Below the pieces are notes generated by a model. That model had not been told where the DNA came from. It ran no database searches and was given only the letters and a program-made list of their open reading frames with translations. A stretch of 64,000 nucleotides of DNA, from the NCBI RefSeq assembly GCF_054482595.1, contig NZ_CM137008.1; one strand, given 5' to 3'. Both the position numbers and the translations under genes were made by a program. Positions 2,791 through 52,595 of this stretch are shown one piece after another (the first letter of the stretch is position 1; each line of letters starts with the position of its first letter).

Positions 2791-3226
2791 AACCTCGTCT
2801 AGTTGTTCGTCATAGATTCAGTGGCTGGCGGTGACGATTCCGCTTTTCGGGAGCTACCCTAGCCACTGTTTTATTCTATCCGATGTCTTTCCATCAGTCC
2901 GCCACCACAAAGAATCTTTTTTGCCATAAGGCAGGAGGTTCATCTTTCAGTGGCTGCCAGTGTTATTTCCCCACCTACTGGCTTGGGTTGTTTCGCTGTA
3001 CTGCCGTAACTGGTTGCCCAGAATAAATTCCGGTTTCATTATCAAGCCCACCCGTAGATAGGCTTTGTAATGAACCGGCTCTTATCTCAACGCAGCCCCT
3101 TACCGCGCGCCAGATGCTCAATATCAAGCATCAGCAATGAGATGTTTAATCTGGATTCACTCCAGAAGTGATCACCACCCTGTCTACAGAGCCAGATGTG
3201 AAGGATGATGAGTAAAATTATCGCTA

Positions 3227-3664: not shown

Positions 3665-4137
3665 ACCTCAATCTCTCTGACCGTTCCGCCTGCTTCTTTG
3701 AATTTTGCAATCAGGTTGTCAGCCTTATGCTCGAACTGACCATAACCAGCACCCGGCAACGAAGCCCAGATATTGCTGCAACGGTCGATTGCCTGACGGA
3801 TGTCACCGCGATCAATCATCGGTAAAGCGCCACGCTCTTTAATCTGTTGCAATGCCACAGCGTCCTGGCTTTTGGGAGAGAAGTCTTTCAGGCCAAGTTG
3901 CTTGCGGTAGGCATCCCACCAACGTGAAAGAAGCTGGTAACGTCCGGCGGCTGTTGATTTGAGCTTTGGGTTTAGCGTGACACGTTTGCGAGGGTGATCG
4001 GAGTAATCAGTGAATAGCTCTCCGCCAACAATGACGTCATAACCATGATTTCTGGTTTTCTGACGTCCGTTATCAGTTCCCTCCGACCACGCCAGCATAT
4101 CGAGGAACGCCTTACGTTGATTATTGATTTCCACCAT
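3661..4137 (-). CDS. R: Endolysin R (lambda-type lytic transglycosylase)
   Basis: 158 aa; near-identical to recalled lambda R ([35 protein letters not shown]...). Confidence 0.9.
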
Positions 4138-4444
4138 CTTCTACTCCGGCTTTTTTAGCAGCGAAGCGTTTGATAAGCGAACCTATCGAGTCAGTACCGA
4201 TGTAGCCGATAAACACGCTCGTTATATAAGCGAGATTGCTACTTAGTCCGGCGAAGTCGAGAAGGTCACGAATGAACCAGGCGATAATGGCGCACATCGT
4301 TGCGTCGATTACTGTTTTTGTAAACGCACCGCCATTATATCTGCCGCGAAGGTACGCCATTGCAAACGCAAGGATTGCCCCGATGCCTTGTTCCTTTGCC
4401 GCGAGAATGGCGGCTAACAGGTCATGTTTTTCTGGCATCTTCAT
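4121..4444 (-). CDS. S: Holin S (lambda-type)
   Basis: 107 aa; matches recalled lambda S ([62 protein letters not shown]...). Confidence 0.9.
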
Positions 4445-4980
4445 GTCTTACCCCCAATAAGGGGATTTGCTCTATTTAATTAGGAATAAGGTCGATTACT
4501 GATAGAACAAATCCAGGCTACTGTGTTTAGTAATCAGATTTGTTCGTGACCGATATGCACGGGCAAAACGGCATGAGGTTGTTAGCGCAGCCTCTTGCCA
4601 CCCGCTTTCACGAAGGTCATGTGTAGAAGGCCGCAGCATAACTATCACTGATGAATTCAGGACAGCTAGTGGCTACGGCTCAGTTTGGGTTGTGGCGGCC
4701 GGAATCGAACCGGCTTCCATCGGTGCGCTGCCGATTGCAGTACGCGCGGCGGTCAGCTACATGACTAGTATTTTCACTATCGCCTATCTGCTAGCTCGCC
4801 ATTGAGCTTCACCACAACGATAAGAGCACTGCGCGGCACCTTTCACCAATTCCGCGAGGTCTGCGGGTTCAATGCTCTTACCTGTTGTGCAAATAAAAAA
4901 GCCACCGTTGCAACTTAAGAGTCACTAACGGCAGCTTATGCGAATAGTGTTGCTCATTTGTTCAATGATGTCAACACGTT

Positions 4981-5469
4981 CTATGCTACATGTTTAATTT
5001 TCTCTACACGTTTCCGGTTTTTAAACGCACTATCCAGAACTGGGTAAATCATAAACAACGAAGCATTGAGGATTTCGTCAACTTCCCGGCGACAGGTTGC
5101 GAGCGATGGTTTTTGAATACGCCCGCCGCCCCGGCATAACATCTTGCGAGGTCTTGCGACACGATGATAGTAAGATGCAATGGCATGCTTGGAAGATCCA
5201 TGAGCGTAGTAGCTGAGGAGGATGCCAAAGGCTTTCTTGTCAATGCACATGACGGAATCGACGACCTGAGAAATCAACATTCCATCATCATCATTACACA
5301 TTGGCCTTGTCATAACTCTTCCCGGCTCTACGCTCTCCATGAACTTCGCTATTACGCTGCTCATGCGCTTTTCCAGGCGACCTGAATAAACCCATGCGCC
5401 CCACAGTTCAAGCCAGCCATTCAGCCACTCGTGCTGTTCTTTGGTGAGGTTTAGTTCTCTTATGCTCAT
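4981..5469 (-). CDS. Q: Late-gene antiterminator Q-like (phage 21 Q-type)
   Basis: 162 aa ORF immediately downstream of ninH and upstream of the lysis cassette; Cys/His-rich; assignment mainly positional. Confidence 0.55.
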   Translation of the reverse strand: MSIRELNLTKEQHEWLNGWLELWGAWVYSGRLEKRMSSVIAKFMESVEPGRVMTRPMCNDDDGMLISQVVDSVMCIDKKAFGILLSYYAHGSSKHAIASYYHRVARPRKMLCRGGGRIQKPSLATCRREVDEILNASLFMIYPVLDSAFKNRKRVEKIKHVA

Positions 5470-50123: not shown

Positions 50124-50282
50124 CATTGGTGGGTCGTGCAGGATGACTCGCTTCGCTCGCCCTTCGGGCCGTCGCCGCGAGCGGCTCCGTTGTTTCGCTA
50201 CGCTCAACTCAAACCTGCTGCAGGTTCGAATCTTTGAGTATCGCAGATAGCAAAAAAGCGCCTTTAGGGCGCTTTTTTACAT

Positions 50283-50358
50283 TGGTGGGTCGTGCAGGAT
50301 TCGAACCTGCGACCAATTGATTAAAAGTCAACTGCTCTACCAACTGAGCTAACGACCC
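50283..50358 (-). tRNA. lysQ: tRNA-Lys (anticodon UUU)
   Basis: 76-nt exact reverse complement of recalled E. coli tRNA-Lys. Confidence 0.9.
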
Positions 50359-50391
50359 CTTGCGGGATTATGCTGCTTTAATCATTCAGGA

Positions 50392-50467
50392 TGGTGGGTC
50401 GTGCAGGATTCGAACCTGCGACCAATTGATTAAAAGTCAACTGCTCTACCAACTGAGCTAACGACCC
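50392..50467 (-). tRNA. lysZ: tRNA-Lys (anticodon UUU)
   Basis: 76-nt exact reverse complement of recalled E. coli tRNA-Lys. Confidence 0.9.
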
Positions 50468-50613
50468 ATACGGGTGTTACCTGAAAGATTTTTACTCGGG
50501 GCCAATCTTTAAGATTGGTGGGTCGTGCAGGATGACTCGCTTCGCTCGCCCTACGGGCCGTTGCTGGCGCAACGTTATCCTTCACGCTTAACATCTGAGT
50601 TTGATGTTAAAAT

Positions 50614-50689
50614 TGGTGGGTCGTGCAGGATTCGAACCTGCGACCAATTGATTAAAAGTCAACTGCTCTACCAACTGAGCTAACGACCC
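50614..50689 (-). tRNA. lysY: tRNA-Lys (anticodon UUU)
   Basis: 76-nt exact reverse complement of recalled E. coli tRNA-Lys. Confidence 0.9.
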
Positions 50690-50692
50690 GAG

Positions 50693-50768
50693 TGGTGGGT
50701 GATGACGGGATCGAACCGCCGACCCCCTCCTTGTAAGGGAGGTGCTCTCCCAGCTGAGCTAATCACCC
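50693..50768 (-). tRNA. valZ: tRNA-Val (anticodon UAC)
   Basis: 76-nt exact reverse complement of recalled E. coli tRNA-Val. Confidence 0.9.
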
Positions 50769-50819
50769 GATACTGCGCTGGATACTACAAACTACTTCCA
50801 CCGAACCCACCGTAATTAG

Positions 50820-50895
50820 TGGTGGGTCGTGCAGGATTCGAACCTGCGACCAATTGATTAAAAGTCAACTGCTCTACCAACTGAGCTAACGACCC
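50820..50895 (-). tRNA. lysW: tRNA-Lys (anticodon UUU)
   Basis: 76-nt exact reverse complement of recalled E. coli tRNA-Lys. Confidence 0.9.
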
Positions 50896-50897
50896 GG

Positions 50898-50973
50898 TGG
50901 TGGGTGATGACGGGATCGAACCGCCGACCCCCTCCTTGTAAGGGAGGTGCTCTCCCAGCTGAGCTAATCACCC
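50898..50973 (-). tRNA. valT: tRNA-Val (anticodon UAC)
   Basis: 76-nt exact reverse complement of recalled E. coli tRNA-Val. Confidence 0.9.
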
Positions 50974-51008
50974 GATACTTCGCTGGATACTACAACTAAC
51001 TAGGTTAG

Positions 51009-51084
51009 TGGTGGGTCGTGCAGGATTCGAACCTGCGACCAATTGATTAAAAGTCAACTGCTCTACCAACTGAGCTAACGACCC
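51009..51084 (-). tRNA. lysT: tRNA-Lys (anticodon UUU)
   Basis: 76-nt exact reverse complement of recalled E. coli tRNA-Lys. Confidence 0.9.
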
Positions 51085-51248
51085 ACTTTTTCGTTGCTTT
51101 CGGTTTGTTTGATATCCCGTGGCAACGGCGGCATATATTACTGATTTCAGACTTGAGCGCAACAAAAATTTCGATGTAGATCACTCAACTGCTTATGATT
51201 CGCACGACACGACCAGAAATAATGCGACTTCTGGTCGTGTGTTATGCA

Positions 51249-52040
51249 TTACATCGCGTTCAGACGTTTTTGCGCCTGTTTAGCGCCATCAGTACCAGGG
51301 TATTTACTGATAACCTGCTGGTATACGGCTTTCGCTTTTGCGGTGTCACCTTTGTCCTGCATGATGACGCCGACTTTAAACATCGCATCTGCAGCCTTTG
51401 GTGACTTCGGATAGTTTTTCACTACCGAAGCAAAATAGTACGCCGCATCATCTTTTTTACCCTTGTTGTAGTTTAACTGACCCAGCCAATAATTGGCGTT
51501 TGGCAGGTAAGTTGAATCAGGGTAATTTTTGATGAAATTCTGAAATGCCACCATTGCGTCATCCTGGCGGGATTTATCCTGCACCAGCGCAATAGCTGCA
51601 TTGTAATCCGTGTTTGCATCACCGCTTTTCACCGGCGCGCCAGTATTCGCAGTACCAGCATCAGCTGTCGGCGTCGTTGATGCCGCCGCACCGCTTTGAT
51701 CACCGCTGGTTGATTGCGCCGCTGCACCACCGCTGCTGAGGCTGTCGATCTGCAACAGGATCTGCTTTTGCCGCTCCACGACCTGATTCAGTTGATACTG
51801 ATTTTCCTGAATCTGACCACGCAGGGAATCAATATCGGATTGATTATCAGAGAGTTGTTGCTGGAGTTGGGTTAAAAGCTGGCTGTGAGCATTAGAAATA
51901 CGCTCAAGTTGAGTGACGCGGTCTTCGACCGAGCCTGAGCCGACACTACTGATTGGTGCCTGAGCAAAAGCGGCCCAGGGGGCCGCTATACCAACCAGTA
52001 ACGACAGACTCAATAGTTGATGTCTGAAGTTACTGCTCAT
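51249..52040 (-). CDS. cpoB: Cell division coordinator CpoB (YbgF), TPR protein
   Basis: 263 aa with signal peptide and Gln-rich coiled coil. Confidence 0.9.
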   Translation of the reverse strand: MSSNFRHQLLSLSLLVGIAAPWAAFAQAPISSVGSGSVEDRVTQLERISNAHSQLLTQLQQQLSDNQSDIDSLRGQIQENQYQLNQVVERQKQILLQIDSLSSGGAAAQSTSGDQSGAAASTTPTADAGTANTGAPVKSGDANTDYNAAIALVQDKSRQDDAMVAFQNFIKNYPDSTYLPNANYWLGQLNYNKGKKDDAAYYFASVVKNYPKSPKAADAMFKVGVIMQDKGDTAKAKAVYQQVISKYPGTDGAKQAQKRLNAM

Positions 52041-52049
52041 GCAATTCTC

Positions 52050-52595
<546 letters not shown>

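Follow-up and report, generated by a model that had tools for sequence, protein, structure and literature searches.

What occupies the leader of the late operon, between the antiterminator gene Q and the holin gene S, in the lambdoid prophage of a 64,000-nucleotide (nt) stretch from NCBI RefSeq assembly GCF_054482595.1, contig NZ_CM137008.1 (this whole stretch is called the window below)? A first-pass annotation, which considered positions 4640-4760, noticed a transfer RNA (tRNA) T-arm motif with a canonical loop on the minus strand, but found neither a matching acceptor stem nor an encoded CCA, and proposed a degenerate or unusual tRNA, or the relic of one. The comparative sequence data indicate that the motif is the 3' part of a 133-nt element (4686-4818, minus strand), a tRNA-derived structured RNA under selection for its fold.

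The element and its homologues

The T-arm motif itself was confirmed. The 17-mer GCCGGTTCGATTCCGGC forms a canonical arm with a 5-base-pair (bp) stem and a 7-nt loop, it is the sole match in the window even with two mismatches allowed, and none of 100 shuffled sequences gave a match (coordinates of all features are listed in Table 1). The acceptor stem, reported as missing, is present: GTTGTGGTG, 111 nt upstream, pairs over 9 bp with CGCCACAAC, which follows the T arm without a spacer. The first-pass annotation missed this stem (P1 below) because its 5' strand lies outside the 4640-4760 interval, which spans the 3' half of the element only. The encoded CCA, also reported as absent, stands directly past the stem.

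Downstream of GTTGTGGTG come AA and a D-arm-like hairpin, while the T arm is preceded by GGAA and, before it, by a hairpin with a 5-bp stem and a 7-nt loop (ATCGG-CAGCGCA-CCGAT) in the place of the anticodon arm. The D-arm-like and anticodon-like arms are separated by an extra arm of 56 nt with conserved AUAG and GCGCGUA junction strands and the loop motif AAUACUAGU. The minimum-energy folds of the element alone and of the whole leader both contain P1, the D arm, the base of the extra arm, the anticodon-like hairpin and the T arm, so that the T arm is not isolated but is part of a predicted tRNA-like fold. At relaxed thresholds ARAGORN draws an alternative end, with an 8-bp acceptor, then C, then CCA. 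In the fold as modelled, the coaxial acceptor/T stack without a spacer, the 3' CCA, and D and T loops able to form an elbow would provide the structural prerequisites of an RNase P substrate. Two small hairpins inside the extra arm, present in the minimum-energy fold, were rejected, as they are paired in 83% and 91% of the alignment with departures to non-pairs and no compensatory changes; in the Pantoea phage PdC23 this region forms one long stem instead.

Homologues were gathered by BLAST and by a scan for a T loop next to CCACAAY-CC. The allele of the window is found by BLAST in 163 of 5426 complete E. coli genomes (in 125 of them at 99% identity or higher), where all copies are unannotated or labelled 'hypothetical protein', and in 92 phage records, mostly of Salmonella Skatevirus. 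Phage PDP110P2 and other E. coli genomes, for instance those of strains SMN013SH2 and PI6, have an identical 133-mer. More diverged homologues are those of PdC23 (78% identity) and of the P22-like phage BIS08P22 (73%), and lineages with 73-78% identity vary in length only from 133 to 135 nt. Copies differ by 1-nt indels, hence the element is non-coding; the same indels rule out a coding role for two short plus-strand open reading frames (ORFs) of 37 aa each at 4651-4764 and 4692-4805. The CAGCGCA anticodon-like loop is near-invariant, and the loop sequences are kept from E. coli to Pantoea phages. The CCA stands 0-1 nt past the stem in 10 of 11 different downstream-flank contexts, given that the search pattern forced two of the C's and some of the flanks are interrelated.

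The element carries wrong labels in some public records. In Salmonella phage vB_CECAV_048 (L200, 1574-1631), 58 nt of a homologue are called 'tRNA-Ser', and records H74 and H71/H72 carry 'polyubiquitin-A' or 'hypothetical protein'. Overall, this RNA gene is without annotation, or misannotated under these three labels, in about 3% of the complete E. coli genomes and in many records of Salmonella phages.

Correlated substitutions in stems are evidence for selection on the fold. In alignment A3 (13 sequences, including PdC23 and BIS08P22), 99.1% of the cells in the five frame helices are paired, and six pairs (16 cells) change in a compensatory way. None of 500 shuffles reaches the observed values, and helices with slid partners are paired in 25-52% of cells; an alignment of 27 sequences points in the same direction. 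The T stem occurs as GCCGG/CCGGC, GCUGG/CCAGC, GUUGG/CCAAC, GCAGG/CCUGU and GAUGG/CCAUC, and the base of the extra arm as GCAG/CUGC, GUGU/ACAC and GGG/CCC. For P1, the variants are GUUGUGGUG/CGCCACAAC, GAUGUGGUG/CACCACAUC, ...GGUU/AACC... and ...GGUA/UGCC..., with pairs 1, 2, 7, 8 and 9 changing compensatorily or by G-U across the family. The substitutions in P1 and the T stem comprise G-C to C-G, G-C to A-U or U-A, and U-A to A-U. A covariance model built from the 13-sequence alignment (R1) scores the window's copy at 169 bits, as the only copy in the window. Its weak cross-matches to host tRNA-Lys and tRNA-Val (17-28 bits) place the D arm and the anticodon arm of tRNA-Lys on the D-like arm and the ATCGG hairpin of the element.

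A sister group (L134, L141, L193, L129, L162, L181 and others) has the same P1, is 134 nt long and keeps the tRNA frame with other additions: its D arm UAGCUCAAUUGGUUAGAGC is canonical, a 5-bp stem with a 4-nt loop replaces the anticodon arm, and the variable region holds a structured insert of 57 nt, while in the window's group the 56-nt arm is placed at position 26/27. RNAalifold predicts for this group a cloverleaf with eight covarying pairs. The group reaches 31.9 bits on the Rfam tRNA model, above the gathering score of 29, although ARAGORN rejects it. In one more member, L128, the insert is in the D loop. The score of the sister group, the R1 cross-matches to host tRNAs and a partial match to a tmRNA model (see below) speak for descent of the element from tRNA.

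These data bear on the possibility of a relic: a tRNA gene that lost its function through an insertion and has been carried along between conserved recombination flanks. A relic would account for the lack of an ARAGORN call at default settings, with a poor candidate appearing only at very relaxed thresholds, for the anticodon-like loop without U33 and a purine at 37, for flanks that are conserved equally well, and for the lack of RNA annotation in RefSeq across the 163 E. coli genomes. However, a relic should gather stem-breaking changes and indels, whereas here every frame helix is kept paired by compensatory substitutions in diverged copies, the length is held at the identity levels given above, the CCA is kept in different flank contexts, and the second group combines the same frame with different inserts. 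We thus regard the relic as unlikely. The compensatory changes and the conservation fit a selected structured RNA rather than a decaying gene, and the word 'remnant' does not suit an element that has the full acceptor, D, anticodon-like and T frame with CCA and is conserved across genera.

Table 1. Positions of the tRNA-like element, its parts and the surrounding features in the window
Feature	Position	Strand	Basis
Whole tRNA-like element, 133 nt, first G of acceptor-like stem to encoded CCA	4686-4818	-	covariance model R1, covariation
Acceptor-like stem P1, 5' strand GTTGTGGTG	4810-4818	-	9-bp pairing with 4689-4697
D-arm-like hairpin: GCTC, loop AATGGC (with GG), GAGC	4794-4807	-	100% of cells paired in A3
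Extra arm between D arm and anticodon-like arm; base GCAG (4791-4788)/CTGC (4740-4737)	4737-4791	-	covarying base helix
Anticodon-arm-like hairpin: ATCGG, loop CAGCGCA (4730-4724), CCGAT	4719-4735	-	100% of cells paired in A3
T arm GCCGGTTCGATTCCGGC: GCCGG, loop TTCGATT, CCGGC	4698-4714	-	unique 17-mer; stem covaries
Acceptor-like stem P1, 3' strand CGCCACAAC	4689-4697	-	pairing, covariation
Encoded CCA directly past P1	4686-4688	-	read from sequence
Slot 1: AAGAGCATTG, 38 nt, CAGTGCTCTT	4822-4879	-	fold stability; closing stem covaries between alleles
tR'-type terminator of the late leader: 9-bp stem, 17-nt loop, T6 run	4895-4935	-	alignment with annotated tR'
Conserved leader segment of about 240 nt, element to S start codon	4445-4685	-	alignment A1
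Q antiterminator (PF06530)	4981-5469	-	Pfam domain match
Lambda-type holin S (PF05106), followed by R and Rz	4121-4444	-	Pfam domain match

Comparison with tRNA, tmRNA and Y RNA

The element is tRNA-like but is not a standard tRNA, which agrees with the 'degenerate or unusual tRNA' of the first-pass annotation. ARAGORN was among the checks suggested there. At default settings no tRNA or transfer-messenger RNA (tmRNA) was found at 4500-5000, nor at the element in 17 related loci; in the window, the program found seven host tRNAs at 50.3-51.1 kb. At -ps50 there is one poor, intron-containing candidate for the element and several mutually overlapping candidates on both strands, and this output served solely as an aid for drawing the cloverleaf. 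No tmRNA was found at the element with the -m option. In a scan of the window with Rfam release 15 at gathering scores, the tRNA matches are the seven host tRNAs only, and the element is matched by no family.

Compared to decoding tRNAs, the element has a T arm with a GTTCRANNC-type loop, a D loop with GG (AATGGC) and an acceptor stem followed by NCCA. Its anticodon-like loop cannot decode, as CAGCGCA has A in position 33 where U is needed and C in position 37 where a purine is needed; moreover, the acceptor has 8-9 bp instead of 7 bp, and the length is 133 nt instead of 73-95 nt.

The best Rfam match to the element is the tmRNA model RF00023 (20.2 bits, E = 7e-6, against a gathering score of 47), but just the T arm and the acceptor are aligned, and 316 model positions are skipped. 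The likeness concerns the tRNA-like domain of tmRNA, which combines an acceptor, a T arm and CCA without a decoding anticodon arm, as the element does. The element lacks the other hallmarks, namely the pseudoknots, the tag reading frame and the G3-U70 alanine identity pair, while having a full D stem; given the score and the lack of pseudoknots and a tag ORF, it is not a tmRNA. At E of 10 or below, only tmRNA, tmRNA_permuted and snoU85 match the element, in a copy of Rfam whose inclusion of a YrlA model is unconfirmed. The matches to snoU85, mir-743, MIR535 and ctRNA were discarded as chance ones.

A functional unusual decoding tRNA, or a miniature tmRNA, could still be considered given the encoded CCA, the T and D arms, the partial match to the tmRNA model and the 'tRNA-Ser' label of the vB_CECAV_048 piece. 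Yet the 56-nt arm separates the D and anticodon arms, the loop has neither U33 nor a purine at 37, 4-nt loops replace the anticodon loop in the sister group, ARAGORN finds neither group, and the tmRNA match has the limits described above. We find this explanation highly improbable.

The other similar RNA is YrlA, a non-coding mimic of the tRNA D arm, T arm and acceptor, which occurs in phages too; in M. smegmatis, RNase P cleaves it and CCA is added to it (Chen et al. 2014, PMC4201824). YrlA differs in having a stem that binds Ro60 (Rsr), with the motif GNCGAAN0-1G, and in being encoded beside rsr, whereas the element is in a phage operon leader. Its neighbours are Q and holin S, with no rsr gene, and membership in the YrlA group is thus unsupported. 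Mimicry of tRNA is well known from RNA viruses, tmRNA, Y RNAs and MALAT1. Rfam release 15, and full-text searches on tRNA-like or hammerhead elements of this leader and on tRNA-like non-coding RNAs of phages, gave no description of the element or of a family of anticodon-less tRNA-shaped RNAs in temperate-phage leaders.

Exchangeable cassettes of the late leader

The element is located in a lambdoid late-gene control region, with Q, a tR'-type hairpin, holin S, R and Rz all on the minus strand. The first-pass annotation placed a late promoter and a terminator-like hairpin upstream. Its second part holds, as the hairpin with its U-run (4935..4895) matches the annotated tR' of HK75 and Sf6 base for base; the promoter, with TTGACA at 4974..4969, was not confirmed. 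A consensus scan of 4400-5100 for sigma-70 promoters and intrinsic terminators flagged neither, so the tR' assignment rests on homology and the promoter is unverified. On the other side of the element, segment 4445-4685 is common to all leader alleles in alignment A1, lambda and Sf6 included; it starts 1 nt past the encoded CCA of the element, and likewise of the Sf6 tRNA-Thr.

The 120 IMG/VR loci collected by the conserved sequence CTGAGCCGTAGCCACT just downstream show that the element belongs to a modular leader architecture. The interval from tR' to CTGAGCCGTAGCCACT consists of two slots for cassettes, and a conserved inverted repeat closes each of them: slot 1 is bounded by AAGAGCAYTG ... 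CAGTGCTCTT, and slot 2 by GTTGTGGTG ... CGCCACAAC, followed by CCA. Alleles are exchanged exactly at these closing repeats. The tRNA-like slot-2 allele of the window is also present in HK75. The place of both slots is taken by tRNA-Asn(GTT) and tRNA-Thr(TGT) in 53 of the 124 sampled leaders, and the CCA of tRNA-Thr ends 1 nt from the end point of the element's CCA. Sf6, phage-21-like and P22-like phages carry this tRNA pair at exactly the position of the element, which bears out the first-pass remark that lambdoid phages have tRNA genes in the Q-to-S interval.

Like a late-leader tRNA cassette, the element lies between tR' and the conserved segment before S, on the late strand and with its CCA at the junction; in position, it is interchangeable with genuine tRNAs. 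The late-leader tRNAs described for Sf6, phage 21, phage L and P22-like phages (tRNA-Asn with tRNA-Thr or tRNA-Leu; PMC8022706) share its interval and strand, and their CCA is within 1 nt of the same junction. They are, however, 75-76 nt long, have proper anticodon loops and are detected by ARAGORN, while the 133-nt element has no usable anticodon, an acceptor of 8-9 bp and an extra arm.

Other slot-2 alleles differ in their interior. The lambda allele has no tRNA features, but keeps the closing stem, with a compensatory G-C to C-G change relative to the window, and the CCA. The alleles of the CUS-3, L009 and L053 types have the window's closing stem and hairpins at both ends with covarying stems, and show no Rfam match. 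In these and their relatives (CUS-3 type: L003, 470-700), the loop of the first hairpin is GGCUGA, and that of the last one AG(U/A)UCAGCA. The GCUGA and UCAGC parts are complementary over 5 nt, which suggests kissing loops that could be a Watson-Crick substitute for the elbow of D and T loops.

The exact exchange at the repeats can also be read at the DNA level, with GTTGTGG...CCACAAC and AAGAGCA...TGCTCTT being mosaic boundaries, homing sites or recombination sites, and the likeness to a T arm incidental. Indeed, the CUS-3 record annotates the flanks as 'boundary sequences', and HNH endonuclease genes are found in or next to the cassettes of L053, BIS08P22 and PdC23. Such a role leaves unexplained that the T, D and arm-base helices covary in a strand-specific way that tolerates G-U, as well as the CCA and the tRNA-model score of the sister group, and cassette exchange can coexist with an RNA function; we consider this reading improbable. 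A remnant of an attachment site (attP) left by integration was rejected: the cloverleaf is there with its two halves, the neighbourhood has no integrase, and the location is within operon leaders.

The HNH or homing-endonuclease genes are located within or beside the cassette region in L053, L051, L069 (between the slots), L202 (2090-2590) and L201 (from 2952 onwards), and the L053 ORF matches PF13392 with E = 3e-18. They recall the homing endonucleases known in the tRNA gene clusters of T4 and T5.

Slot 1 of the window folds as a 13-bp hairpin, extended to 19 bp by the flanks CACAAC (4889-4884) and GTTGTG (4818-4813). The flanked hairpin (4813-4889) has a fold z-score of -3.6, and none of 200 shuffles is as stable. 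The 5' strand of P1 thus has two potential partners, although in the fold of the full-length leader GUUGUG pairs downstream, as the acceptor stem, and not with the upstream CACAAC. The need to pair with both would explain why the outer 6-7 bp of P1 are almost frozen in sequence, while the inner pairs covary. In BIS08P22 (L202, 1398-1634) P1 is GAUGUG/CACAUC, and CACAUC is found also about 95 nt upstream; this single case, with a chance expectation of about 3%, is suggestive of the three-way covariation that the alternative pairing would produce.

The lambda allele of slot 1 is the exact target of the northern probe P844. According to the supplement of a preprint (bioRxiv 10.1101/2024.10.31.621285), this probe detects LPR2, an Hfq-bound RNA of about 63 nt, mainly in the lytic cycle, and the preprint also mentions chimeras of LPR2 with other RNAs. 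It follows that the late transcript of lambda gives rise to the slot-1 module as a discrete RNA of this size. The window has the same two-slot architecture, with slot 1 directly upstream of the tRNA-like slot; as a positional homologue of the lambda module, slot 1 of the window is probably the source of a small RNA that resembles LPR2 but differs in its interior. LPR2 itself corresponds to the neighbouring module and not to the tRNA-like one, since lambda has in slot 2 the same closing stem without tRNA features.

Another allele, in the slot equivalent to window 4822-4879, has the core of a type-I hammerhead-like ribozyme (L077, 2189-2235; also L103, L120, L010 and L081). The core is intact (CUGACGAG, helix II, CGAAAC, helix III, GUC; helix I CGCGC/GCGCG), though its score on the Rfam model Hammerhead_1, 24.7 bits (E = 0.0014), does not reach the gathering score of 34. 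After the core, the same closing stem also encloses about 130 nt more of structured-looking RNA. In L066, L128 and L022, the slot-1 alleles have T-loop hairpins abutting the closing strand.

The composite CACAAC-AGGN-(slot-1 hairpin)-NCC-GUUGUGG-(tRNA-like)-CCACAAC-CCA is kept in unrelated contexts. Members of the family are in the late leader upstream of a holin in the window and L128; in BIS08P22 the homologue stands between a boxB-like hairpin and the start codon of N, with the CCA 20 nt before ATG. The member in L134 belongs to an early operon, with a CI-like repressor on its upstream side and a DicF-like sequence on its downstream side, and that of PdC23 lies in a long intergenic region. 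The DicF-like sequence (L134, 5673-5721), about 45 nt downstream of the sister-group element, scores 29.6 bits against a gathering score of 48.

A possible role in transcript processing

As the element is flanked by tR' and holin S, which are on its own strand, its transcription takes place only within the Q-antiterminated late transcript. Its excision from this transcript as a processing module, a tRNA-derived RNA without anticodon function, is the role we consider most closely, and we put its chances at about even. The element probably marks a cut point of the long late transcript. Host tRNA-maturation enzymes would recognise the acceptor/T-arm stack and the elbow, and RNase P would cut at the 5' side of the element. 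Before this cut or instead of it, an RNase III-type cut could occur in the adjoining 19-bp hairpin; if made at the internal loop, it would fit the size of LPR2 and leave GUUGUGG as a new 5' end. Trimming of the 3' side to CCA would then yield a stable tRNA-shaped RNA, and the excision would split the pR'/qut/tR' leader from the messenger RNA (mRNA) for lysis and morphogenesis. We infer the excision of the window's element, the enzymes used and the effect of the cleavage or of the released RNA from the features described above.

In lambda, the N leader has an RNase III processing site between boxB and the start of N, that is, in the position of the BIS08P22 homologue. The lambda late leader is reported to be processed by RNase III as well (Daniels et al. 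1988, as cited in PMC7547250). By analogy, these parallels support a processing role for the element.

The same principle is known from eukaryotes and organelles. In the MALAT1 transcript, with its mascRNA, and in mitochondrial tRNA punctuation, a tRNA-shaped module in a long transcript is excised by RNase P and 3' enzymes and sets the ends of the flanking RNAs. These systems have no sequence relation to the phage element. As far as such analogies reach, the element would work most like these tRNA-type processing signals, while in appearance it is closest to the tRNA-like modules of tmRNA and YrlA. It would also be a natural counterpart of the engineered 'tRNA scaffold' that stabilises recombinant RNAs.

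Several observations weigh against the processing role or narrow its basis. The fold energy of the element alone is unremarkable (z = -0.85, not significant), so the case rests on comparative data, and, as most copies are 96-100% identical, much of the covariation comes from a few diverged lineages (PdC23, BIS08P22, L125, L165 and L132). RNase P normally measures a 12-bp acceptor/T stack, while that of the element, having an acceptor of 8-9 bp and not 7 bp, is 13-14 bp long. The lambda slot-2 allele, with its stem and CCA but without tRNA features, implies that these two may serve something other than tRNA mimicry, for instance the pairing of GUUGUG with the upstream CACAAC. In Salmonella Skatevirus the element lies between genes annotated on the opposite strand, which is a poor fit to a simple operon-leader role. 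Finally, the RNase P, RNase III and 3'-trimming steps are all ones that we infer from sequence features.

Alternatively, or in addition, the element may be a trans-acting small RNA built on a tRNA scaffold, in which the frame ensures excision and stability, and the extra arm or the loops CAGCGCA and AAUACUAGU are the working part. Such an RNA could act on tRNA-binding enzymes or on defence nucleases that target tRNAs, as a decoy or sponge, or could regulate by base pairing. This would be consistent with the frame being kept while the inserted arms wholly differ between sub-groups (the 56-nt arm, the 57-nt insert in the variable region, the D-loop insert of L128), with loop sequences almost unchanged from E. 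coli to Pantoea phages, and with the Hfq binding and the chimeras of the neighbouring lambda module LPR2. Phage tRNAs are also described as counter-defence tools in a preprint (bioRxiv 10.1101/2023.03.15.532788). A candidate pairing, a 6-nt complementarity of the CAGCGCA loop to the downstream leader, was dropped, as it occurs also in phages without the element. A trans-acting role is compatible with the processing role and does not exclude it; we hold it to be possible, if rather doubtful.

If the processing model is true, one account would cover the lambdoid tRNAs right after the late terminator and the RNase III-processed late and N leaders of lambda, and also the origin of LPR2 and the hammerhead-like ribozyme at this spot. 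In a broader and quite tentative form, operon leaders of lambdoid and related temperate phages may have a dedicated 'cut here' site into which different RNA modules can be swapped, with the tRNA-like one also yielding a stable CCA-ended RNA that functions in trans. Such a site may be present downstream of tR' in the late leader and between nutL and N in the pL leader; the modules may comprise an RNase III hairpin (lambda LPR2), real tRNAs, a hammerhead ribozyme, kissing-loop RNAs and the anticodon-less tRNA-like family. In trans, this RNA may, for example, serve as a decoy that diverts tRNA-binding enzymes or defence nucleases directed at tRNA, or it may even be chargeable.

Two more regions of the window contain structured RNAs. 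At 50127-52149 (minus strand) there are five tRNA-Lys(UUU) and two tRNA-Val(UAC) genes, with two RtT RNA matches inside the array, and the CpoB/ybgF thermometer at 52011-52149 (minus strand); from the array and the thermometer, the right part of the window is E. coli core genome beside the prophage. An int-alpA RNA motif (Rfam; 42.0 bits against a gathering score of 35.8) is located at 2807-2869 (minus strand), a few hundred bases downstream of Rz, and the equivalent place holds this motif in L009 and L077.

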